Part shown: piece by piece, positions 2,669 to 33,330 of the stretch
Position numbering within the stretch: position 1 is the stretch's first letter
Layout of the letters: each line of letters begins with the position of its first letter
Source of the DNA: a virus
Taxonomy: Duplodnaviria; Heunggongvirae; Uroviricota; Caudoviricetes
Virus record (IMG/VR): IMGVR_UViG_3300027806_000037
Location: 1 to 64,000 of that record
DNA: 64,000 bases
Reading direction: 5' to 3' (one strand)
The notes under the pieces: model-generated
What the model was told of the DNA's origin: nothing
Seen by the model: only the letters and a program-made list of their open reading frames with translations
Database searches by the model: none
Position numbers and translations under genes: made by a program

Positions 2669-3739
2669 ATGCAAATAATAAATAACAAATTAAAATATAT
2701 ATTTATAATAATTTTTGGTTTTGTTTTCAACATTAAAACTTTCTCACAAACAGATTTGGTATTTTATGATTTTAATGTATGTAATAATAATCCTGATTAT
2801 ATTTTTCCATATTTTAATGCAACACCTGTGACAACAACTTTACCACTTGGTTCGGGATGTAGTAGCATTAATGATGGATGTGCAGCCGGATGCCCCGATT
2901 TGATTTGTACAAATAACAACACATCCTTTATAACAAAATCTTGGACTAGTCCAGCAATAAATCTCGCTCATTATTATGAGTTTACAATATCAACATATCC
3001 AAATGTTTCGTTTTATTTAAATCAATTAAGTTTTAGTTTCAGAAGATCATCCACTGGACCCACCAACCTTGCTGTATATATGAATGGTGTTTCTCAATCA
3101 ATATTTAATTCAACATCAACAAGTTGCGTTTCACTTGGTGCGGGAATTAATCAATTGGTGACTGGTTCAGCAAATTTTAAAATTTATTTTTGGGGTGGCT
3201 CGGTCGATGGGACAGTAAGAATTGATAATGTGAAACTCACACATTCGTTTACAACTTTACCAATTGAGTTAGTTTATTTTAATGTGAGGTCAATTGAAAA
3301 TAAAATTAATTTAGAGTGGTTGACATCATCAGAAGTGGATAATTCGCATTTTGAAATTGAAAAGTCATTTGATGCGTTTAATTTCTATAAAATAGCCAAT
3401 ATAATTTCAATTGGTTACTCACAACAAAATATATTGTATAATTATACAGATTTTAATGTAAATAATGATAAAATAATATATTATCGCTTAAAACAAGTTG
3501 ATTATGATGGTGATTATACATATTCACCAATAGTTTCAGTTAATAATAATTTTGATGCAATTTTAATACAAAATGGATTGGTTTCATTAACCAACCAACA
3601 TGAATACAAAATAGCTAATATTTGTGATATCTCTGGGAGATTTATTCATGATTTGAATAATGGATCAGTTCAGCTAAATGCTGGAATATATTTATTAAGA
3701 TTAAACGATAAAACCAAAAAAATTGTTTTAAACAATTAA
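2669..3739 (+). CDS. secreted protein with T9SS (Por) C-terminal sorting domain
   Basis: N-terminal signal peptide (IFIIIFGFVFNIKTFSQ); C-terminal about 70 aa (ILIQNGLVSL...ISGRFIHDL...LNAGIYLLRLNDKTKKIVLNN) matches the T9SS type A CTD pattern. Confidence 0.55.
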   Translation: MQIINNKLKYIFIIIFGFVFNIKTFSQTDLVFYDFNVCNNNPDYIFPYFNATPVTTTLPLGSGCSSINDGCAAGCPDLICTNNNTSFITKSWTSPAINLAHYYEFTISTYPNVSFYLNQLSFSFRRSSTGPTNLAVYMNGVSQSIFNSTSTSCVSLGAGINQLVTGSANFKIYFWGGSVDGTVRIDNVKLTHSFTTLPIELVYFNVRSIENKINLEWLTSSEVDNSHFEIEKSFDAFNFYKIANIISIGYSQQNILYNYTDFNVNNDKIIYYRLKQVDYDGDYTYSPIVSVNNNFDAILIQNGLVSLTNQHEYKIANICDISGRFIHDLNNGSVQLNAGIYLLRLNDKTKKIVLNN

Positions 3740-3787
3740 TTTGTTTTTCTAAACATTTTTATTTATATTTGCATATAAATACAAAAA

Positions 3788-4462
3788 ATGTTAATTACAA
3801 TAATATCTGATACCCACACAAAACATCATCACATTCCGAAAGAACATCTTCCGGGTGGAGACATGATTATTCATTGTGGTGATATTTCTTCGCGTGGTTA
3901 TAGAGAAGAGGTTAGATTGTTCCTTGAATGGTTTACCGATTTAGATTCCTATACACACAAAGTATTCATTGCTGGTAATCACGATTTCTTCTTTGAAGAT
4001 AACCCACTCCAATCAAAGGAATTGGTTCAAGAATATTCAAATATAATTTATCTTCAGGATAATATGGTTGAAATTGAGGGGGTCAAAATTTATGGCTCAC
4101 CTTGGCAACCAGAATTTTATAATTGGGCGTTTAATCTTCCAAGAAACGGTGAAAAACTTAAAGAAAAATGGAAAGCAATACCGGAGAATATTGATATATT
4201 AATTACACATGGTCCACCGTTTGGTTGTTTGGACAAAACAATTCAGGGACAATCCGTTGGATGCGAAATTTTGACCGAAGAAATTAAAAGAATTAATCCA
4301 ATAATTCATTGTTTTGGTCATATTCATTATTCTTATGGTTATATGCAAAGAGACAATATTAATTTTATTAATGCGTGTTCTCTTGGTGAAAATTATGTTT
4401 ATCAAAACAAACCTTTGAACATTGATTTGGATATGTCAAATAGAATGATTAGCTTTGTCTAA
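3788..4462 (+). CDS. calcineurin-like metallophosphoesterase
   Basis: DTH ... GDISSRG ... GNHD ... GHIH metal-binding motif order of the MPP superfamily. Confidence 0.75.
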   Translation: MLITIISDTHTKHHHIPKEHLPGGDMIIHCGDISSRGYREEVRLFLEWFTDLDSYTHKVFIAGNHDFFFEDNPLQSKELVQEYSNIIYLQDNMVEIEGVKIYGSPWQPEFYNWAFNLPRNGEKLKEKWKAIPENIDILITHGPPFGCLDKTIQGQSVGCEILTEEIKRINPIIHCFGHIHYSYGYMQRDNINFINACSLGENYVYQNKPLNIDLDMSNRMISFV

Positions 4463-4473
4463 ACAAAAAACAA

Positions 4474-4620
4474 ATGAAAAAATTAATTTTTGCACTTATT
4501 ATTGTTATTTTTGCATCTTCCTGTGCATCACAAAGATGTCATGGTGTTGGAAACACAACACATGCACTTAAAGCGAAAAAGCAGCAACAACAAAGAACGT
4601 TTTCACAATTTCCTTTCTAA
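4474..4620 (+). CDS. small putative lipoprotein (48 aa, not in track)
   Basis: MKKLIFALIIVIFASSC lipobox-like signal; Q-rich tail. Confidence 0.3.
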   Translation: MKKLIFALIIVIFASSCASQRCHGVGNTTHALKAKKQQQQRTFSQFPF

Positions 4621-5195
4621 TGTTTAAACATAGTTTTTCATATTATTTTAGAAATACTTGGGAATTTATCCGATGGGATATTCCAAGATTTTTTAAGAAC
4701 ATTTGGAGGTTCAGGAGAGAACTTAAATCCTTTGGTGGTTGGGACCGGTATTATACTATCTCAATGCTAAGAAGGTCTTTGATTACACAGAAAGAATCAA
4801 TGGAAAAGTTCAGCAATGAATATGAACCAACACTTAGATTGAAACTTTATTATATGAAGAGAGCAATTTATTTAACGGATTGCATTCTCGAAGATAAATT
4901 TCATGATATGGCGGAAGCTAGACTTGGTTATAAAACAGTTTTTAGAGATTTTAAATTTGAACCAATTGAAGGTTCTACCAGTAAAAGATTGGTTTTTGAT
5001 GAAGAAAGCGAAGAAGAAAGACAAGCGAACTGGAAAATTTTTGAGGAATCTTCAAAAATTGAGAAAGAAGTTTGGAATGAACTTTTTGATATTTTAAAAG
5101 GCGATATCTATAATGTTGATATGTATACCGAACATAAAGGTAAAGCATATGAAGATGTTCACAATGGTAAGGGTTTAATTAATTGGTGGTACTAA
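4620..5195 (+). CDS. hypothetical protein
   Basis: 191-aa ORF. Confidence 0.5.
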   Translation: MFKHSFSYYFRNTWEFIRWDIPRFFKNIWRFRRELKSFGGWDRYYTISMLRRSLITQKESMEKFSNEYEPTLRLKLYYMKRAIYLTDCILEDKFHDMAEARLGYKTVFRDFKFEPIEGSTSKRLVFDEESEEERQANWKIFEESSKIEKEVWNELFDILKGDIYNVDMYTEHKGKAYEDVHNGKGLINWWY

Positions 5196-5888: not shown

Positions 5889-5937
5889 AAACCTTTTTCT
5901 TTTCTTTTTGTGTGGTGGGAAAATAAAATTTAAAATA
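5889..5937 (+). promoter_or_regulatory. conserved about 50-nt upstream element AACCTTTTTCTTTTCTTTTTGTGTGGTGGGAAAATAAAATTTAAAA (copy 1, upstream of IleRS-like gene)
   Basis: near-identical copy at about 10684..10748 upstream of another gene. Confidence 0.4.
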
Positions 5938-7911
5938 ATGAATAAAGTATTATTACCAAAAGAAGAAATTACACAGAAGTTAGATAGAGATAAACTTACT
6001 TTATTGAACGCTTCTATCAAAGATTATGTGAACAACTTGTATGAAAATTCAAATGATGAATACATTATACAAGATGGTGAACCATACGCCAATGGAGAAT
6101 TACATTTGGGACATTTTTTAAACAAAACCTTGAAAGATTTTGTTGTAAAATATTACTTAACAAAAGGTAAGAAAGTTAGGGTTTCATTTGGTTGGGACTG
6201 TCATGGTTTACCCATTGAAAATAAAGCAAAAGAAATGAGTGGTGATTTAATTCAAAATGCTAAATTAGTCGCAACCAAATATTGTGATATTCAAAATAAA
6301 ACTCTTGAACTTTTCGGGATTTATCCAACTGAAGGTAGGTTTAAAACTATGGATATTGATTTTATAGAAAGAGAATTATATATATACCACCAACTACTAA
6401 ATGCGGGTCTAATTCTTAAAAAGAATAAGCCTACTTGGTACTCACCAACATTAAAAACAGTATTGGCTAACTCAGAAATTGAATATAAAAAAATAGAAGA
6501 TGAATCTTTGTATTTTCTATTCAACTCTGATAGTTTTAAATTACTTGTTTGGACAACAACAGAATGGACTGTAAACGGAAATCAGGCAGTATGTTTAAGT
6601 AATAATATAAAATATGTTAAAACTGTTGACAATATTATTTGTAGTGAAAGTTTTGCTATTGAAAATAATTTAGATTATGATTTGTTTGATGTGAGTAATA
6701 TTAAGTCATATCATAACCACAATGGAGATTTATGTCCAATTATTTATGATGACTACGTTTCAGATGATAAAACAGGTATAGTACATCTTTGCGGTGGACA
6801 CGGTGATGAAGATTATCGAATTTTAATGGATAATAACATAACCCCCAAAAATGTGTGCGATAAAATCGGCTTATTAAAACACATAGAAGATTTTAAAATT
6901 GATGAAAAGTTTGTATATAAACGTGAAATTTACACACACGATTATCCAATTGATTGGCGTGAAGGGAATAAGGTGTATAAAGTATTAACGGAACAAACGT
7001 ATCTTGATTTTGATTTAAACAAAATAAAGACTTGTTTAAAAGAAATAAAGTTATCATCAAAAGACAGAAATCGTTTATCAACGACAATATTTTCACGCAA
7101 AGATTGGTGTATTTCAAGACAAAGAAAATGGGGTGTTAAAATACCTAATAGTAATGATATATTGGATGTTTGGTTTGATAGTGGTTCTACATTTATGATG
7201 TATGATAAACCTGCCGATATATACATTGAAGGTTCAGACCAACACAGAGGGTGGTTTCAAAGTTCGATTATATTAGCATCAATGATTGGTCGAGTACCAA
7301 CAAAAAGAATAATAACACACGGATTTATTGTTGATAACACATTAGAAAAACTATCAAAATCAAAAGGTAATGGCGGAAGTTTGGAAAAGCTGTATGAAAC
7401 ATATAACCCTGATGTATTAAGACTATGGGTTTTACTGTCAGATTTTAAAAACGATATTGTCTTTTCGGAAGATTCATTAAAAAACTCTGGTAAACAATAT
7501 TTTAAAATAAGAAACTTTCTCCGTTATTTATTTAATAATCTATATATATATGATTATGATGAAACAAAAGTTGATGAAAATATTTTTTTTAAAGTAAAAG
7601 AGTTGGAAAATAAATTTGATTTACTTGTCAATGAATTTGATTTGAATAAAGCAGTAAGGGGTTTTGTTGAATTTATAAACTATTATTCATCTTTGTTGAC
7701 GGAGGATATTAAAAATGAATTTTATGAATCTGACACAAATTCCAATATGAGAATTAAATATGAAACAGAGTTTTACTATGTTTTAAAACACTTAAATAAA
7801 CTACTTTTTTCGATTTTACCATTTCTTTCTATGGAAATAAAAAAAGCGTGGGAAGAAAAAAGAAAAGAAAAAGATTTACATGTAGGGACTATATTTGGAA
7901 ACGAGATGTAG
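5938..7911 (+). CDS. ileS: isoleucyl-tRNA synthetase-like class I aaRS, shortened (about 657 aa)
   Basis: PYANGELHLGHFLNKTLKDFVVKYY (HIGH region), GWDCHGLPIE, WTTTEWT, DWCISRQRKWGVKIP and KLSKSKGN (KMSKS) are IleRS signatures. Protein is about 250-400 aa shorter than canonical IleRS: reduced CP1, C-terminal Zn domain missing. Confidence 0.8.
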   Translation: MNKVLLPKEEITQKLDRDKLTLLNASIKDYVNNLYENSNDEYIIQDGEPYANGELHLGHFLNKTLKDFVVKYYLTKGKKVRVSFGWDCHGLPIENKAKEMSGDLIQNAKLVATKYCDIQNKTLELFGIYPTEGRFKTMDIDFIERELYIYHQLLNAGLILKKNKPTWYSPTLKTVLANSEIEYKKIEDESLYFLFNSDSFKLLVWTTTEWTVNGNQAVCLSNNIKYVKTVDNIICSESFAIENNLDYDLFDVSNIKSYHNHNGDLCPIIYDDYVSDDKTGIVHLCGGHGDEDYRILMDNNITPKNVCDKIGLLKHIEDFKIDEKFVYKREIYTHDYPIDWREGNKVYKVLTEQTYLDFDLNKIKTCLKEIKLSSKDRNRLSTTIFSRKDWCISRQRKWGVKIPNSNDILDVWFDSGSTFMMYDKPADIYIEGSDQHRGWFQSSIILASMIGRVPTKRIITHGFIVDNTLEKLSKSKGNGGSLEKLYETYNPDVLRLWVLLSDFKNDIVFSEDSLKNSGKQYFKIRNFLRYLFNNLYIYDYDETKVDENIFFKVKELENKFDLLVNEFDLNKAVRGFVEFINYYSSLLTEDIKNEFYESDTNSNMRIKYETEFYYVLKHLNKLLFSILPFLSMEIKKAWEEKRKEKDLHVGTIFGNEM

Positions 7912-14392: not shown

Positions 14393-14486
14393 CTAGTATA
14401 TATAAGTAAGTATAATCTAACCACTTAAAAATAAAGGACTTGAATAATAAAATTATTAAGATTTGTGAAGAAAAGTTTATATATTT
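14393..14486 (+). repeat. 94-bp perfect direct repeat, copy A (covers promoter region and first 15 codons of the tyrosine recombinase)
   Basis: ctagtatatataagtaagtataatctaaccacttaaaaataaaggacttgaataataaaattattaagatttgtgaagaaaagtttatatattt, identical at 43982..44075. Confidence 0.8.
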
Positions 14487-15240
14487 AAACTATTCACCAA
14501 GAACAAAAGATAATTATCTTTCACATATAAAAAATTTCTTAAATCACATTGGTAGTAAACAAGTAATACATTGTAATGCTCAAGATTTTCAATCCTATTT
14601 AGATAATTATAAATTCACTTCAACAGCACAACAAAACCAAATCATTAACGCAATAAGATTTCTCTACAAATTTGGTCTTAATAAAAAATATGATAAAATA
14701 TCGTTTAAAAGACCTAAATCTGAGAAGAAACTACCAAAAGTAATTGATTCAAATTCAATCATTGATAAATTAAATAAGATTGATAATCTCAAACACAAAG
14801 CAATTCTCACCTTAACTTTTTCAGTTGGTCTACGAGTCTCAGAAATAATTAATCTTAAAATAGAGGATATTGATTCCAAGCGAATGTTAATCCACATTAA
14901 GAACGCAAAAGGAAGAAAAGATAGAGTTGTTCCATTATCTCAAAATGTATTAAGACTATTAAGAACTTATTATAAAAATTATATCCCAAAGGAATATCTC
15001 TTCAATGGACAAAACAGTACTAAATATTCAATAGGTAGTTGTCAGAAAATATACAAAAAATATATTGAATCTGATGGACATATACACACACTTAGACACA
15101 GTTTTGCAACATCCTTATTAGAAAATGGAACAGATTTAAGAATTATTCAAAAAATTCTTGGTCATTCAAATGTTAAAACCACAGAAATATACACACACGT
15201 TTCAAATCAAATTTTGAACAAAATTAATTTGCCAGTTTGA
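14440..15240 (+). CDS. tyrosine site-specific recombinase/integrase (XerC/D-like), apparent TTG start
   Basis: Catalytic set R (LRVSEI), K (HIKNAKGRKDR), HxxR (HTLRHSFAT), H...Y (LGHSNVKTTEIYTHV). No in-frame ATG near the N-terminus; the frame opens after a stop at about 14413. Confidence 0.8.
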   Translation: MNNKIIKICEEKFIYLNYSPRTKDNYLSHIKNFLNHIGSKQVIHCNAQDFQSYLDNYKFTSTAQQNQIINAIRFLYKFGLNKKYDKISFKRPKSEKKLPKVIDSNSIIDKLNKIDNLKHKAILTLTFSVGLRVSEIINLKIEDIDSKRMLIHIKNAKGRKDRVVPLSQNVLRLLRTYYKNYIPKEYLFNGQNSTKYSIGSCQKIYKKYIESDGHIHTLRHSFATSLLENGTDLRIIQKILGHSNVKTTEIYTHVSNQILNKINLPV

Positions 15241-17201: not shown

Positions 17202-18182
17202 ATGAAAGACGCAACGATTGAAATTATTTCTGAAGTCAAAGCTCATCCTGATGCAGATAGACTTGATCTTGTTAAGATTCTTGGGTTTCAATGCGTTACA
17301 CAAAAAGGACTTTATAAGGGTGGTGAGAAAATTGTTTATATTCGACCTGATGCGGTTCTTCCTATTGAACCTTGGACTGAAGAGTATCGAAAATATTCAC
17401 CAAAACGAATCAAAGCTGTAAAACTTCGTGGCGAATTTAGTGAAGGTATTATTGTTAGGTTTGAACAACTTCCAGTTGATTTATCAAATCTTCAAGTTGG
17501 CTCTGATGTGAGTGAACAAATTGGTGTTGTTCATTATGAAGCACCACAACCACAAGATCTTCAAGCAAAAGGTTATCTTCCGGTTGGAATTGGTCCCACT
17601 GATGAAATTCGATTTGAGAATATCATTGATGAACTTCCATTCGGTTCAATTGTTGATGTTACATCTAAAGTTGATGGACAAAGTTGTAGTTTCTATTATA
17701 ACATTGAAACTGATGAATTTGGTGTTCTTGGAAGAAACTTGGAAATGAAGTTGGATGCGGTAAATAACTATACCGCACATGTTGCTCGTTACAACATTAA
17801 AAATAAGCTTATTGACTATTGCAAAAAACATAATGTTTCTTTGTGCATTCGTGGTGAGTCGTTTGGTCAAGGGATTCAAAGTTCTGGAAACAATCCACAT
17901 TCTCAAAAACCAAAAGGGTGGGTAATGTTTTCTGTATATAACATTAAAGAACGTAAATATCATAGAAAGAACGATAGATTCTATTTTAGAAATGTTGCGC
18001 AAGAATTGGAATTACCATTCGTTGATATCATTGAATTGGATGTCGAATTAACTAATGAGTTGATTCAAAAATATTCGGTTGGTATTGATAAAATTGAAGG
18101 TAAACCTTTTGAGGGTGTTGTAATTAATCATGAAAATGGTTCTTTTAAAGTTATTAACAAATCTTATGATTCTAAAAAATGA
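17202..18182 (+). CDS. fusion of tRNA-binding OB domain (Myf/EMAP/CsaA type) and RNA ligase nucleotidyltransferase domain
   Basis: N-terminus EVKAHPDADRLDLVKI ... KGGEKIVYIRPDAVLP ... LRGEFSEGII matches the tRNA-binding domain of MetRS-C/PheT-N/CsaA. C-terminus has ligase motif I KVDGQS, motif III-like IRGESFG, motif IV EGVVI, motif V FKVINK. Confidence 0.6.
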   Translation: MKDATIEIISEVKAHPDADRLDLVKILGFQCVTQKGLYKGGEKIVYIRPDAVLPIEPWTEEYRKYSPKRIKAVKLRGEFSEGIIVRFEQLPVDLSNLQVGSDVSEQIGVVHYEAPQPQDLQAKGYLPVGIGPTDEIRFENIIDELPFGSIVDVTSKVDGQSCSFYYNIETDEFGVLGRNLEMKLDAVNNYTAHVARYNIKNKLIDYCKKHNVSLCIRGESFGQGIQSSGNNPHSQKPKGWVMFSVYNIKERKYHRKNDRFYFRNVAQELELPFVDIIELDVELTNELIQKYSVGIDKIEGKPFEGVVINHENGSFKVINKSYDSKK

Positions 18183-30498: not shown

Positions 30499-30585
30499 AA
30501 ATTAACAAAAAAGATTTGCATAAATCAAATGAAGGTTGTAATTTTGTCTCGGTAAATTAAATGTCTAACTAAAATCTAAGTACAC

Positions 30586-30723
30586 ATGGAAAATGTAGTG
30601 GTAAGTGAGAAGCGTAAAGTCGGTCGTCCCAAAGGTTCGGTGAACCCTAACTCTAAGCGTCAACAAAAGTTGCGCGAACGAGCAGAGCGAGATGCACATA
30701 AGACTGTTGAAGTGGAAGCATAA
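30586..30723 (+). CDS. AT-hook mini-protein, paralog 1 (45 aa, not in track)
   Basis: MENVVVSEKRKVGRPKGSVNPNSKRQQKLRERAERDAHKTVEVEA; GRP AT-hook core. Confidence 0.5.
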   Translation: MENVVVSEKRKVGRPKGSVNPNSKRQQKLRERAERDAHKTVEVEA

Positions 30724-30775
30724 GTAGGTGGGGTATTTGGGTCGGGTGAAATTGGTCATCCGATCCCCCACCGAA
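30724..30775 (+). terminator. hairpin downstream of AT-hook gene 1 (GGTGGGG...CCCCACC, A-run after)
   Basis: gtaggtggggtatttgggtcgggtgaaattggtcatccgatcccccaccgaaaaaaaag. Confidence 0.35.
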
Positions 30776-30863
30776 AAAAAAGAGAAAAAAGACTTGCAAA
30801 ATTGAATAAGAATAGTTAACTTTGTATCGGTAACAGAAACACAAACCTTAAACACGAAAAACG

Positions 30864-31022
30864 ATGGAAGCAACTCTTGAAGCACCGGTAACGTCTGTGG
30901 AAACTGCAAAGCGCAAGCGCGGTCGTCCCAAAGGTTCTGTTAAACCTGACTCTAAGCGTCAACAAAAGTTGCGCGAACGAGCAGAGCGAGAAGCAAGGAA
31001 AGCTGAGGAAGCACAAGGATAA
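30864..31022 (+). CDS. AT-hook mini-protein, paralog 2 (52 aa, not in track)
   Basis: MEATLEAPVTSVETAKRKRGRPKGSVKPDSKRQQKLREREREARKAEEAQG; about 90 nt nearly identical to paralog 1. Confidence 0.5.
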   Translation: MEATLEAPVTSVETAKRKRGRPKGSVKPDSKRQQKLRERAEREARKAEEAQG

Positions 31023-31039
31023 TTGGTTGGTTGGTTTGG

Positions 31040-31085
31040 TTAAGTAGGTGGAGAGGGTCGGTGAAAACGTCACCGACCCCCACCG
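31040..31085 (+). terminator. strong hairpin downstream of AT-hook gene 2
   Basis: GGTGGAGAGGGTCGGTGA-AAAC-GTCACCGACCCCCACC. Confidence 0.4.
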
Positions 31086-31100
31086 AAAAGTAAAAGAGTT

Positions 31101-31275
31101 CTTTGAATATCATATCTGTGGGTCAAGACCGCTCCTTGGTCGGGAGAAGAGAAACTTCGGTTGTGTAAACGACCTATGTTCATGTGTGATTGTAAAGCGA
31201 CAACTGCATGGTCTGCGACCAGCGATGTGGGTAAACCGTAATCCCACCACATGAACTTGCACACCCACAGATATG
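31101..31275 (+). ncRNA. candidate structured ncRNA (long-range stem CATATCTGTGGGT ... ACCCACAGATATG enclosing internal hairpins)
   Basis: 13-bp closing stem about 150 nt apart; internal ATGTGGG...CCCACCACAT hairpin; no credible ORF. Confidence 0.3.
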
Positions 31276-31339
31276 AAAATTTTCAGGTAAGTGTTGGAGA
31301 TATGAAAATAATGCTTATCTTTGTGATGTTCTTTGATTA

Positions 31340-31480
31340 GATTGTTTCGGTGACGCTTGGGTATCGTTAGGTCTTACAAATCCCAAGATTTATGTTCTGA
31401 CGCAAAGGAACACAGCGTTATGCTGTTATTTGGCGCAAATATTCCTAACCATTAATATTTTTAGTCACCGGAACAATTTA
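31340..31480 (+). ncRNA. candidate promoter-driven noncoding transcript (closed by CGGTGAC ... GTCACCG; internal CTTGGG...CCCAAG hairpin)
   Basis: preceded by a promoter copy gaaaataatgcttatctttgtgatgttctttga that is duplicated before tRNA-Leu. Confidence 0.3.
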
Positions 31481-31532
31481 ATTTGGAAATGTGAAATGGA
31501 TGTTGTATCTTTGTGATGTTCTTTGACTTAAT

Positions 31533-31849
31533 GCTCCCGTGGTGAAATTGGTAAACACAACAGACTTTAGACTTAACTACCTCATTTTCAGGTAGTTAGA
31601 ATTTGAGTGCATCACTTGAAAAGGTGAATGTAGAATACCGTAAATTCAGGGAACGCTTAACTGCCAATCCTGAGCCAAGCGTGATGAAAATCATGAAGGT
31701 GCAGAGACTAGACACGGTACGCCTAAAACGAAAGTTATGGCGATGGTATAGTCCAGACCACAAACCCAATATTGGGGCGGCGAAAGTCGAAGTGGTAAGA
31801 AAATCTGTCGCCCCCAACGGGCTTGTCAGTTCGATTCTGACCGGGAGCA
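31533..31849 (+). tRNA. tRNA-Leu(UAA) interrupted by a group I intron in the anticodon loop (exons about 31533..31567 and 31800..31849; 85-nt mature tRNA with long variable arm)
   Basis: Acceptor GCTCCCG/CGGGAGC, D-arm GTGA..ACAC, anticodon stem ACAGA/TCTGT, loop CUU^AAAA (U34^A35 insertion), variable arm CGCCCCCAACGGGCTT, T-arm GTCAG-TTCGATT-CTGAC, discriminator A. Confidence 0.75.
31568..31799 (+). ncRNA. group I self-splicing intron (about 232 nt)
   Basis: P AATTCAGGGAA (about 31643), Q AATCCTGAGC (about 31666), R GTGCAGAGACTAGACA (about 31699), S GATGGTATAGTCC (about 31742). P/Q and R/S are complementary (P4, P7). 3-prime terminal G then exon AAAATCTGT. Track ORF 31603..31893 runs past the exon and is taken as spurious. 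Confidence 0.75.
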
Positions 31850-31869
31850 CATTTTTAGGTTCGACTTTT

Positions 31870-31941
31870 GCCCCCATAGTTAAATGGATATAATAGAAAA
31901 CTTCTAATTTTCGGTTCCTAGTTCGATTCTAGGTGGGGGTA
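31870..31941 (+). tRNA. tRNA-Arg(UCU)
   Basis: Acceptor GCCCCCA/TGGGGGT, anticodon stem GAAAA/TTTTC, loop CTTCTAA (anticodon TCT), T-arm CCTAG-TTCGATT-CTAGG. Confidence 0.7.
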
Positions 31942-32008
31942 CTGAAACTTTTTCATCCTAAATCGAACTTTTGAATTATTCCTTATATTTATAGGGAAAG
32001 ATTCGATA

Positions 32009-32662
32009 ATGAGATTAAATAATGAAAAAACCAAAGGTGATATTGGTGTCACACAAGTAATAGCAGACTTAACTAAAAAGGGGTATCAAGTTGCAATCCC
32101 AATCGCGGAACATCTACAATATGATTTAATTTGTCACGATACGACAAATAATAAATTGTTTAGATTACAAGTTAAATACGATAAGGTTAATGCGATTCTT
32201 TGTACGAAAAATTTTCGCACAACTAACGGGGAGGTAGTAAAGAAATATGAGATTCACGATTTTGAATATTATGCAATTTATCTACCTGATATAGACGAGT
32301 GCGCATACATACCCAATGTTGGGTTAACACATATGACAGTAAGAACTACTTTACCTCTTTACAAAGATAGGGATATAATTTGGTGGGAAGACTATAAATA
32401 CCCAACCGGAACTACAATCACCTATCGTAAACCGAGTGATATTAACCCAAATTTTAGAATGATTTACCCTAAAAATACATATGGTAAACGTAAAGTCAAA
32501 AATCGCCCAACCAAAGAAGAATTACAAACGCTAATCGAAACAACACCATACACGAAAATAGGTGAATTATATGGTGTATCAGATAATGCAATACGGAAAT
32601 GGGCGAAATCTTATGGAATATTGAAAAATAAGTATAAGAAAAATTTGCAAGTCTCGGATTAA
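32009..32662 (+). CDS. hypothetical protein with possible PD-(D/E)xK-like N-terminus and C-terminal helix-turn-helix; candidate free-standing nuclease
   Basis: YDLICHD...FRLQVKYD (D ... QxK) and C-terminal TPYTKIGELYGVSDNAIRKWAKSYGI HTH-like; placement beside the intron-containing tRNA. Confidence 0.35.
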   Translation: MRLNNEKTKGDIGVTQVIADLTKKGYQVAIPIAEHLQYDLICHDTTNNKLFRLQVKYDKVNAILCTKNFRTTNGEVVKKYEIHDFEYYAIYLPDIDECAYIPNVGLTHMTVRTTLPLYKDRDIIWWEDYKYPTGTTITYRKPSDINPNFRMIYPKNTYGKRKVKNRPTKEELQTLIETTPYTKIGELYGVSDNAIRKWAKSYGILKNKYKKNLQVSD

Positions 32663-32885
32663 TGATGTAACTTTACAATCTCAATCACGGTTAACTGTTC
32701 ATCAGTATACTGCGTCAACAGCGAAAGTGAACAAGTGACTTAAATGCAGCGGTGCTTCGGTTGTTGACGCAACCGTAACTGGTTCGACTCCAGCGTGATT
32801 TGACCCGGATCTCACAACGGAACTACCATCCATCCGCTGTTGTGGGATAAAAAGAGATGGGTGGGTCGTCAACCGGGTAAACGGT
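32663..32885 (+). other. structured non-coding region with tRNA-like features
   Basis: AATCACG (about 32683) pairs with CGTGATT after a T-arm-like CTGG-TTCGACT-CCAG (about 32775..32800). A 10-bp hairpin TGCGTCAACA...TGTTGACGCA has a 40-nt loop. Further hairpin CACAACGG...CCGCTGTTGTG. Confidence 0.3.
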
Positions 32886-32887
32886 AC

Positions 32888-32920
32888 AGAGGTGGTAGCC
32901 AGTCACCTCATTTTTTTTTC
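32888..32920 (+). terminator. rho-independent terminator
   Basis: GAGGTG-gtagccagt-CACCTC followed by ATTTTTTTTT. Confidence 0.65.
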
Positions 32921-32979
32921 AAATGTGGTTGCACATACCAAAAAAATAATCTATCTTTGCATCACTAAACCAAACGAAT

Positions 32980-33330
32980 ATGAAATATATTGGAACACAT
33001 TCTTATAGTGATACTTCATATTACCAAGATGGTGATAAGTTCTATCGTGAGCAAAAAGAAAGCGTGGATACCTCCACAACTCTTAAAGAACATCTTAAAC
33101 ACGTTCAGCGAGTACTCGCTAACTATCCTGATGCTCTTTTCACAACAGAACGTTTGAAGTACGAGGATGGTTATGAGGTGGTATTCACATATAATGTAGA
33201 AGTACCAGCGTTCGATAAAAACCTCAATGAAGTTTTGCAAATGAATGCAAAACGAGAAGTACAACAAAAAGTAAATGATGCGAAACTTCTTGAAGAATTG
33301 AAAAAACGTTCACCCGAACTCTTCAAATAA
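32980..33330 (+). CDS. hypothetical protein
   Basis: 116-aa ORF with conserved promoter tctatctttgcatcactaaaccaaacgaatATG. Confidence 0.5.
   Translation: MKYIGTHSYSDTSYYQDGDKFYREQKESVDTSTTLKEHLKHVQRVLANYPDALFTTERLKYEDGYEVVFTYNVEVPAFDKNLNEVLQMNAKREVQQKVNDAKLLEELKKRSPELFK

Follow-up and report, generated by a model that had tools for sequence, protein, structure and literature searches.

Positions 31533-31849 of the DNA analysed here, a 64,000-nucleotide (nt) stretch of IMG/VR virus record IMGVR_UViG_3300027806_000037 (hereafter the window), make up a 317-nt interval that standard annotation leaves 'non-coding', and the question raised by this locus is what such an interval encodes. It is explained by a tRNA-Leu(UAA) gene split by a 232-nt, IC3-like group I intron without an open reading frame (ORF), located at 31568-31799 and identified with Rfam family RF00028, nhmmer, covariation among 41 sequences and the minimum free energy (MFE) fold. 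Recognition of the intron rescues a tRNA gene that standard annotation misses. Judged from conservation, the element is very probably a self-splicing group I intron within a working tRNA-Leu(UAA) gene. The intron type itself is known; what deserves attention is how often group I introns occur in phage tRNA genes, which appears not to have been described, and that they are linked to free-standing endonuclease genes. All elements of the tRNA locus given below with coordinates lie on the + strand.

Reconstitution of the split tRNA-Leu(UAA) gene

The 5' exon (31533-31567, 35 nt) supplies the acceptor 5' strand, the D arm, the anticodon stem 5' strand and C32 U33 U34, and the 3' exon (31800-31849, 50 nt) supplies A35 A36 A37 A38, the anticodon stem 3' strand, a long variable arm, the T arm, the acceptor 3' strand and A73. 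The former reads GCTCCCG...ACAGACTT and ends in CUU, while the latter reads AAAATCTGT...CGGGAGCA and opens with AAAA; CCA is not encoded at the 3' end. When joined, the exons form an 85-nt class II tRNA-Leu(UAA), to which ARAGORN assigned a size of 85/86 nt, the discriminator A73 and a cloverleaf with a 7-bp acceptor, 3-bp D, 5-bp anticodon, 4-bp variable-arm and 5-bp T stem. The anticodon stem arises from the pairing of ACAGA (31560-31564) with UCUGU (31804-31808) across the insert; a paired exon anticodon stem is reported to be needed for the Anabaena intron to splice (title of Zaug et al. 1993, cited in PMC3984707).

Both exons were also recovered by ARAGORN from the unspliced DNA when its intron option was used. 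Default ARAGORN and Rfam at gathering thresholds both missed tRNA-Leu and returned only tRNA-Arg(UCU) at 31870-31942 and tRNA(CAU) at 35720-35794, so that routine annotation does not see the gene.

The position of the splice junction has been evaluated by comparison with empty sites. Seventy-three viral loci share the same 18 nt before the splice site (GGTAAACACAACAGACTT); 68 of them are intron-less and four carry an intron at exactly that point. The intron-less loci go straight on, 66 into AAAATCTG and two into AAAATTTG. The predicted spliced junction of the window reads ACAGACUU joined to AAAAUCUGU, and an unbroken 43-nt stretch in 11 intron-less phage tRNA-Leu genes is 100% identical to the predicted spliced product over this junction, so that excision of 31568-31799 restores a naturally occurring sequence. 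An intron-less allele of the window's own tRNA-Leu gave no exact match in metagenome contigs.

Codon usage has been examined in 69 ORFs of the window. UUA is the commonest leucine codon (36%) and is accompanied by UUG (24%); AGA is the commonest arginine codon (49%), and AUA makes up 23% of isoleucine codons. The preferences for all three amino acids match the tRNAs encoded in the window, and the tRNA-Leu(UAA) would probably be useful to the carrier genome.

Identification of the insert as a group I intron

The insert sits between U34 and A35 of the anticodon loop (CUU^AAAA) and its last base is G31799. In E-value mode, Rfam model RF00028 (Intron_gpI) matched 31588-31776 over model positions 1-253 with 42 bits and an E-value of 2e-9 (551 nt searched); the score lies under the gathering score of 50, which is why a gathering-mode Rfam scan is silent. 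When 40 other phage genes, and not the window, were used to build a profile, nhmmer retrieved 31534-31850 with an E-value of 1.7e-58, and elsewhere in the window gave only a non-significant match to the T arm of tRNA-Arg (E-value 9.6). MFE folding of the intron alone recovered P2, P4-P6, P8 and P9 without structural input (z = -3.65).

Covariation was assessed on 41 distinct phage sequences, i.e. the window and 40 relatives, by placing the P1-P9 structure, including the P3/P7 pseudoknot, on their alignment. Standard pairs are formed in 94.9% of the alignment cells, as compared to 29-41% when the partners are shifted by 1-3 columns. Changes on both sides are seen in 40 of the 57 pairs, and none of 500 shuffles attained any observed value. 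On sequence grounds the insert is a group I intron, because Rfam, the relatives, an independent profile and covariation provide four independent lines of evidence. Four independent metagenome assemblies agree over 30500-32700 with 100% identity; these assemblies, together with the E-values, exclude misassembly and chance resemblance. The genome is present in the samples JGI 3300032116, 3300005525 and 3300031951 and ENA ERZ27247957 and ERZ27247984.

Two ORFs overlapping the intron extend into the exons and have no Pfam family match. The intron is only 232 nt long and lacks the homing endonuclease of its own that marks a mobile group I intron. The IC3 label is taken over from relatives that PMC13011429 (Table S5) places in this subgroup, and by these relatives the intron is a new member of the well-known tRNA-Leu(UAA) IC3 family.

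Secondary structure of the intron

In the predicted fold, P1 is formed by exon ACUU (31564-31567) and GAGU (31605-31608), the latter being part of the internal guide sequence AAUUUGAGU (31600-31608), and the U31567-G31605 pair lies at the 5' splice site. All but one of the four P1 pairs are invariant in the 41 sequences, the U-G included, as is the terminal G31799 of the intron 3' end (AAG, omega-G); the support for the U-G pair and the terminal G therefore comes from conservation and not from covariation. A possible P10, read from the sequence alone and likewise invariant, would pair UUU (31602-31604) with AAA of the 3' exon (31800-31802).

The remaining helices are more variable in sequence, as evident from the paired changes that they display. 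P2 (31610-31630) is a hairpin with a GAAA loop at 31618-31621, and seven of its eight pairs are changed on both sides. P3 (31636-31641 with 31714-31719) is 100% paired with compensatory changes in all six pairs, and is separated by J3/4 (AAA) from P4 (31645-31650 with 31669-31674), which is 99% paired, two of its six pairs covarying and four being invariant. All pairs covary in P5 (31655-31656 with 31663-31664) and in P6 (31680-31685 with 31690-31695), the latter being closed by a GAAA loop. P7 (31706-31710 with 31749-31753, UAGUC) is 100% paired and shows one A-U to U-A swap in 10 sequences. P8 (31720-31742) contains an internal loop, CCUAAA...UAUGG, and six of its seven pairs covary; as read from the sequence, the loop resembles the published motif of the 11-nt GAAA-tetraloop receptor, CCUAAG...UAUGG. 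J8/7 (AUGGUA) and the 3' strand of P7 occupy 31743-31753. P9 (31757-31761 with 31792-31796) is 98% paired and encloses P9a (31765-31768 with 31773-31776) and P9b (31778-31781 with 31786-31789), which has a GAAA loop and covariation in all four pairs.

At positions that at least 90% of its relatives conserve, the window's departures inside helices are compensated, for example at G31640-C31715 in P3 and at A31648-U31671 in P4; the latter pair is unique to the window, the other 40 sequences having G-C. The P1 loop of the window holds a specific 27-nt hairpin (L1 hairpin, 31573-31599) with a 10-bp stem, UUAACUACCU-CAUUUUC-AGGUAGUUAG. It is missing from 38 of the 40 aligned relatives, and the other two (L066 and L075) have different inserts there. 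The hexamer AGACUU occurs twice, at 31562-31567 and at 31569-31574. The L1 hairpin was also considered as a repeated mobile element and rejected, since it occurs once in the window.

These results bear on an earlier note on this DNA, which had been made from the sequence by itself. It had reconstituted an 85-nt class II tRNA-Leu(UAA) from the exon halves, which ARAGORN on the joined exons confirms, and had placed a 232-nt insert ending in G between U34 and A35, a position borne out by ARAGORN, by the 68 intron-less phage genes and by the 43-nt junction match. Its P (31643-31653), Q (31666-31675), R (31699-31714) and S (31742-31754) strings lie where it had put them, P/Q being complementary as P4 and R/S as P7. 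The P3-P9 fold on which it had staked the claim is upheld by the covariation described above, and an intron-aware tRNA search does find the split gene. The covariance-model search it had named gave a mixed outcome, as the RF00028 match spans the whole model with a convincing E-value and its score stays under the gathering score.

Comparison with known introns

The tRNA-Leu intron of Nostoc PCC 7120, for which the precursor sequence was taken from PMC13011429 (Table S4), interrupts the same gene at the same U34/A35 site, has the same P1-P9 order and aligns collinearly with the window. The two share identical P4/Q strings (TCAGGGAA, CAATCCTGAGCCAAGC), an identical R string (GGTGCAGAGACT), the P9 GAAA loop and the terminal G. 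There is, however, only 57% identity over about 200 aligned positions; the Nostoc intron has a long P6 extension, differs in the S/P9 region (GAGAGAGTCCAATTCTC versus GGTATAGTCCAGACCAC) and lacks the L1 hairpin of the window. The Nostoc pre-tRNA-Leu is an established in vitro self-splicer, active without protein, and served as positive control in PMC13011429.

Non-cyanobacterial IC3 introns of tRNA-Leu(UAA) (PMC13011429, Table S5) occupy the same site, and an Acidobacteriota member is 67% identical to the window. They have the same J8/7-P7-P9 sequence type as the window, GG(T/G)ATAGTCCAGACCAC...GTGGTAAG. As compared to them, the window is set apart by its AT-rich phage-like genome, by a P4 and R of the cyanobacterial sequence type and by the L1 hairpin. 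The window thus combines P4/Q and R strings of the cyanobacterial/plastid type with an S and P9 region of the bacterial/phage type. Split tRNA-Leu(UAA) genes of phages (LR756501/LR756503, LR756511, Atu_ph07 and at least 54 IMG/VR contigs) agree with the window in gene, site and fold at 67-70% identity; some of them carry an HNH endonuclease ORF in L1, whereas the window intron does not.

No close relative of the window's intron lineage was found, the identity being at most about 81% over parts of the core; in searches with the C-type R element and with the P4/Q pattern, identity did not exceed about 85%, and that over short stretches.

Distribution in phages and bacteria

A scan of IMG/VR for the R element (AGGTGYAGAGACTWGAC) returned at least 120 loci. 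Among the matches listed, at least about 90 have an intron-split tRNA gene (Leu, Arg, Lys, Met, Thr and others), and at least 54 are tRNA-Leu(UAA) genes split as CUU^...G^AAAA. The huge-phage records LR756501, LR756503 (735 kb) and LR756511 (595 kb) have tRNA-Leu(UAA) split at the same site, and the intron of LR756511 contains an HNH ORF. When a consensus query was run against 50,697 phage records, cultured phages were also found to carry such genes. Agrobacterium jumbo phage Atu_ph07 (MF403008.1, about 112,890-113,251; L324 1157-1518) has an unannotated split tRNA-Leu(UAA) with a 278-nt intron, partly overlapped by a coding sequence labelled 'hypothetical protein', and Gordonia phage Daredevil (NC_048021.1; L325 840-1151) has an unannotated tRNA-Lys(UUU) with a 238-nt group I intron.

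A corresponding R-element scan of bacteria, with one genome per species, also returned at least 120 loci, which include at least 49 tRNA-Leu(UAA) genes with an intron at the 34/35 site among the matches listed. Hosts of this tRNA-Leu intron include Alpha-, Beta- and Gammaproteobacteria (Pseudomonadota), Acidobacteriota, Bacteroidota, Chloroflexota and Binatia. The same scan also recovered split tRNA-Met/Ile2, Arg, Ser, Phe and others. A 2026 survey of bacterial genomes counts position 34/35 of tRNA-Leu among the common insertion sites and assigns 81% of its introns to subgroup IC (PMC13011429).

The description 'cyanobacterial-style' in the earlier note is consequently right as to site and collinearity with Nostoc and too narrow as to kinship, given the bacterial cases and an identity of 57% to Nostoc against 67-70% to phage and Acidobacteriota introns. 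The same note had called such an intron unusual in a phage-like genome and had suggested horizontal transfer of the intron or the tRNA. The IMG/VR loci, the three huge-phage records and Atu_ph07 speak against the first point; the same intron is common in phage-like sequences, so no special transfer from a cyanobacterium to a phage is needed. The classic tRNA-Leu(UAA) intron is confined neither to cyanobacteria nor to cellular genomes, and it is common in phage tRNA clusters, those of huge phages and of at least one cultured jumbo phage included.

A review of bacterial group I introns from 2014 noted that, although phage tRNA genes are numerous, every phage intron then known interrupted a protein-coding gene (PMC3984707). 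In the huge-phage paper, tRNAs were found with the bacterial model of tRNAscan-SE and introns are never mentioned (PMC7162821). In papers on crAss-like phages, jumbo phages and Bastillevirinae, introns come up for protein genes only. No published description of a phage tRNA gene with a group I intron was found, with literature coverage that is incomplete and an absence that is no proof. Since split tRNA genes are missed by annotation and are common in phages, phage tRNA counts are underestimates. The textbook division, with bacterial introns in tRNA genes and phage introns in protein genes, needs revision, and phages are plausible vehicles for the spread of tRNA introns between bacterial phyla. 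It is also conceivable, though less likely than not, that the group I introns of phage tRNA genes are a large overlooked class which, besides being passengers, might protect the phage's own tRNA genes from adjacent homing endonucleases that target tRNA genes, the latter cutting the intron-less alleles of competitors, as in collaborative homing.

Closely related IC3 introns were also observed after U34 in phage tRNA-Arg(UCU) and tRNA-Lys(UUU) genes of IMG/VR (L049, L085, L047, L025 and others). The CUU context of the 5' splice site, common to the Leu, Arg and Lys introns, suggests that the intron may have moved between tRNA species with similar anticodon loops. Another group of split tRNAs in IMG/VR (L014, L039, L061, L099, L115 and L118) has a UAA anticodon, 3' exons of only 39-40 nt and no long variable arm; these look like class I tRNAs with a leucine anticodon.

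Proposed splicing pathway and alternative explanations

The chemistry of the intron is most likely the ordinary guanosine-initiated two-step transesterification, for which every structural prerequisite is in place. Transcription of the precursor would start at a Bacteroidota-type promoter and probably extend through tRNA-Arg(UCU) and the endonuclease gene that follows; the intron would fold into P1-P9 with the GAGU guide paired to exon ACUU and U34 (31567) held in the U-G pair at the 5' splice site. Bound in P7, an external guanosine would attack after U34. With the AAA of the 3' exon aligned on the guide through P10 and the exon anticodon stem also paired, the free 3'-OH of U34 would attack after G31799, joining the exons and creating the anticodon loop CUUAAAA. 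RNase P, 3' trimming and CCA addition by the host would then give the finished 85-nt tRNA, which would read UUA and UUG, the top leucine codons of this AT-rich genome. The intron itself may be a selfish passenger without its own endonuclease, maintained by vertical inheritance or by co-conversion when the neighbouring homing-endonuclease-like gene triggers recombination.

Several observations weigh against a self-splicing intron in a working phage tRNA gene. The RF00028 score falls short of the gathering score. At position 31744 of J8/7 the window has U, as compared to A in all 40 aligned phage relatives, and the resulting AUG form of J8/7 is rare, being seen in four of 120 bacterial introns among the matches listed. 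The second AGACUU, next to the lineage-specific L1 hairpin, could compete for the guide sequence. The recovered copies of the window's intron are all identical and provide no within-lineage evidence of selection, and we infer splicing itself from conservation only. Capsid, terminase and tail genes were not found in the 64-kb window or in about 10 kb past its end.

The first three of these points are relevant to the question of whether the intron is a decayed relic in which splicing has been lost or is poor, and the tRNA-Leu a pseudogene. The replaced A of J8/7, the possible disturbance of P1 by the hairpin and the duplicated AGACUU, and the low Rfam score would all fit such decay. Every helix from P1 to P9 is nevertheless intact, with the window's helix departures compensated; the AUG form of J8/7 is present in other tRNA introns, and L1 of related introns tolerates inserts of up to about 500 nt in the form of HNH ORFs. 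The exons still form a flawless cloverleaf, a promoter-like site is present and UUA is the top leucine codon, and decay is accordingly considered quite unlikely. Many natural group I introns depend on protein help in vivo, and an RNA ligase is encoded at 17202-18182 of the window, so that splicing assisted by a host or phage chaperone or maturase, or cutting of the halves and their rejoining by the ligase, has also been considered. The complete covarying core with guide sequence, terminal G and GAAA loops points instead to self-splicing, as does the homologous Nostoc intron, which splices without protein (PMC13011429). A tRNA-splicing endonuclease was not seen among the scanned ORFs of the window, and phage RNA ligases of this kind are generally tied to the repair of cleaved tRNAs (PMC7824862); dependence on such proteins appears very improbable.

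The lack of phage structural genes has a different bearing, namely on the nature of the DNA, and the carrier is accordingly a phage by inference. A bacterial island or integrative element of Bacteroidota would account for this lack and for the integrase (14440-15240) and the DUF932 protein encoded in the window, and Bacteroidota genomes do carry tRNA-Leu(UAA) introns, as evident from PMC13011429 and from the bacterial scan; the element would then be another bacterial tRNA-Leu intron. Such an origin would alter the context and not the identity of the intron. It is rather unlikely, as nearly all genes lie on the + strand and most are small ORFans, and contigs reach 146 kb. Among the phage records searched, the sole match of a 652-amino acid (aa) ORFan is the 595-kb LR756511, and the best matches of the RNA ligase are the 735-kb LR756501 and LR756503, all of them huge phages with the same split tRNA-Leu. 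An aminoacyl-tRNA synthetase, TilS, tRNAs and many HNH genes are also typical of huge phages (PMC7162821). The carrier is therefore most likely a very large, huge-phage-like genome of Bacteroidota, as far as gene content and sequence relatives indicate; the sample identifiers give the impression that these Bacteroidota may live in freshwater. Megablast of 24 kb of the window against the 50,697 phage records gave no match.

Neighbouring endonuclease gene and mobility of the intron

The earlier note had described the intron as free of a homing endonuclease ORF. This is true of the intron itself, but a free-standing homing-endonuclease-like gene of 217 aa (32009-32662) lies 160 nt past tRNA-Leu and 66 nt past tRNA-Arg(UCU). 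Its product has an N-terminal PD-(D/E)XK domain, which scores 73.7 bits to PF11645 against a cut-off of 26.1, and a C-terminal domain common to HNH/Vsr-type nucleases. The best solved relative is PDB entry 2OST (E-value 4e-4), which we take to be I-Ssp6803I, the PD-(D/E)XK homing endonuclease of the tRNA-fMet intron of the cyanobacterium Synechocystis. YDL...LQVKY of the window protein aligns with YDL...VQVKS of 2OST, and the D...QxK motif common to both presumably represents the catalytic residues. Both proteins belong to PF11645, whereas the window gene is not intron-encoded and has the extra C-terminal domain.

Two homologues, P0012 (in L322) and P0017 (in L323), are 37-42% identical to the window protein; each is likewise free-standing and lies 55-80 nt past a tRNA-Arg gene (CCU for one, UCU for the other), and related ORFs occur inside bacterial tRNA-Met(CAU) introns. 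Relatives of the PD-(D/E)XK protein were absent from the IMG/VR related-locus search and were found by a larger protein search. Because its homologues lie next to tRNA-Arg or in tRNA introns, ORF 32009-32662 is best read as a putative homing endonuclease tied to tRNA-Arg. The free-standing endonuclease SegB of the T4 tRNA gene cluster has a GIY-YIG fold; it resembles ORF 32009-32662 in lying free-standing inside a phage tRNA cluster and differs from it in fold. SegB is named as a phage homing endonuclease in PMC13096335. PD-(D/E)XK genes are also reported in introns of tRNA-fMet and tRNA-Arg(UCU), the tRNA-Arg(UCU) cases being in Bacteroidota (PMC13011429).

Endonuclease ORFs inside the tRNA-Leu introns of phages are of another type. 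Seven IMG/VR relatives with introns of about 700 nt (L048, L057, L059, L065, L068, L081 and L093) have an HNH ORF in L1 that separates the 5' splice site from the guide sequence, at the place occupied by the hairpin in the window. Together with LR756511 (L002), all endonuclease ORFs of phage tRNA-Leu introns are HNH. In the seven IMG/VR loci, the HNH ORF often extends at its end across the internal guide sequence and P2. The proposal that ORF 32009-32662 is of the type encoded in tRNA-Leu introns has been rejected, since the nuclease domains are dissimilar and only the C-terminal domain is in common. This C-terminal domain is also fused to HNH and Vsr-type nucleases elsewhere, and in one locus (L119) a free-standing HNH gene with the same domain directly follows an ORF-less split tRNA-Leu.

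The tightly linked intron could be carried along by co-conversion when ORF 32009-32662 acts; protection or mobilisation of the intron by this gene is speculation. The combination of ORF-less introns and free-standing endonuclease genes in tRNA clusters offers a testable model of intron movement.

On the metagenomic contig L322, an IS605-type element (3564-5053; Y1 transposase and an OrfB/TnpB-like gene) lies beside a tRNA cluster with two PD-(D/E)XK genes. In the window, ARAGORN in intron mode proposed a 'tRNA-Ala(AGC)' at 32028-32802 with a 686-nt intron; this candidate was rejected for its poor acceptor pairing, the location of its 5' half in the ORF and the lack of an Rfam group I core in 31940-33050.

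Flanking elements and genome context

A Bacteroidota-type promoter-like site (31482-31513; TTTG, a 20-nt spacer and TAtcTTTG) ends 19 nt before the 5' end of the tRNA. The window has 30 sites of the form TTTG-N17-23-TAnnTTTG, of which 26 lie on the + strand, as compared to 7.1 +/- 2.9 in shuffles, in agreement with the Bacteroidetes-type promoters claimed in the earlier note, and the site at 31482-31513 presumably acts as a promoter. Two copies of a promoter-like 21-nt box (TATCTTTGTGATGTTCTTTGA) lie at 31316-31336 and 31506-31526. The intron-less tRNA-Arg(UCU) (31870-31942; ARAGORN, and Rfam with 59.7 bits) begins 20 nt after tRNA-Leu. An intrinsic-terminator-like hairpin followed by a run of nine T (32889-32919) is the sole one on the + strand after the tRNA-Leu promoter-like site, and the region from this site through the terminator would form a single transcription unit.

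The window has a G+C content of 26-41% and uses the standard genetic code. Recoding of stop codons was tried as a cause of the short ORFs and rejected, as TAG or TGA recoding adds little ORF length and TAA recoding inflates both strands equally. An IleRS-like protein of 667 aa (5908-7911) scores 385 bits to the ileS model, far under the cut-off of 621. A TilS-like protein with a TilS N-domain (35091-35693; TIGR02432, 126 bits) is encoded directly before tRNA(CAU) (35720-35794), which suggests a phage-borne pair of tRNA-Ile2 and lysidine synthetase.

Other structured elements were noticed around the tRNA genes. Right after the box copy at 31316-31336 lies an element of about 140 nt (31340-31478; z = -2.55) with a 15-bp closing stem (GATTGTTTCGGTGAC / GTCACCGGAACAATT); it has no Rfam match and may be a small RNA of unknown kind. 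Another structured stretch (31112-31274) is closed by a 12-bp stem (ATATCTGTGGGT / ACCCACAGATAT), and a match to skipping-rope RNA (RF02924) at 31179-31255 is sub-threshold, with 26.2 bits against a gathering score of 36.7 (E-value 5e-4, 441 nt searched).

Downstream of the endonuclease gene, 32683-32800 ends like a tRNA. The T-arm-like sequence CTGG-TTCGACT-CCAG (32779-32793) precedes CGTGATT (32794-32800), and the latter is perfectly complementary to AATCACG (32683-32689). The two strands are separated by about 89 nt, too many for a normal tRNA, and ARAGORN made no convincing call in this interval. A 12-bp hairpin and then the terminator follow this tRNA-like 3' end. Upstream of the locus, two paralogous small genes (30586-30723 and 30864-31022; 45 and 52 aa) with a GRPKGS...KRQQKLRERAER motif lie in a 143-nt direct repeat spaced 299 nt apart, and each is followed by a GGTGGGG...CCCCCACC hairpin and an A run.

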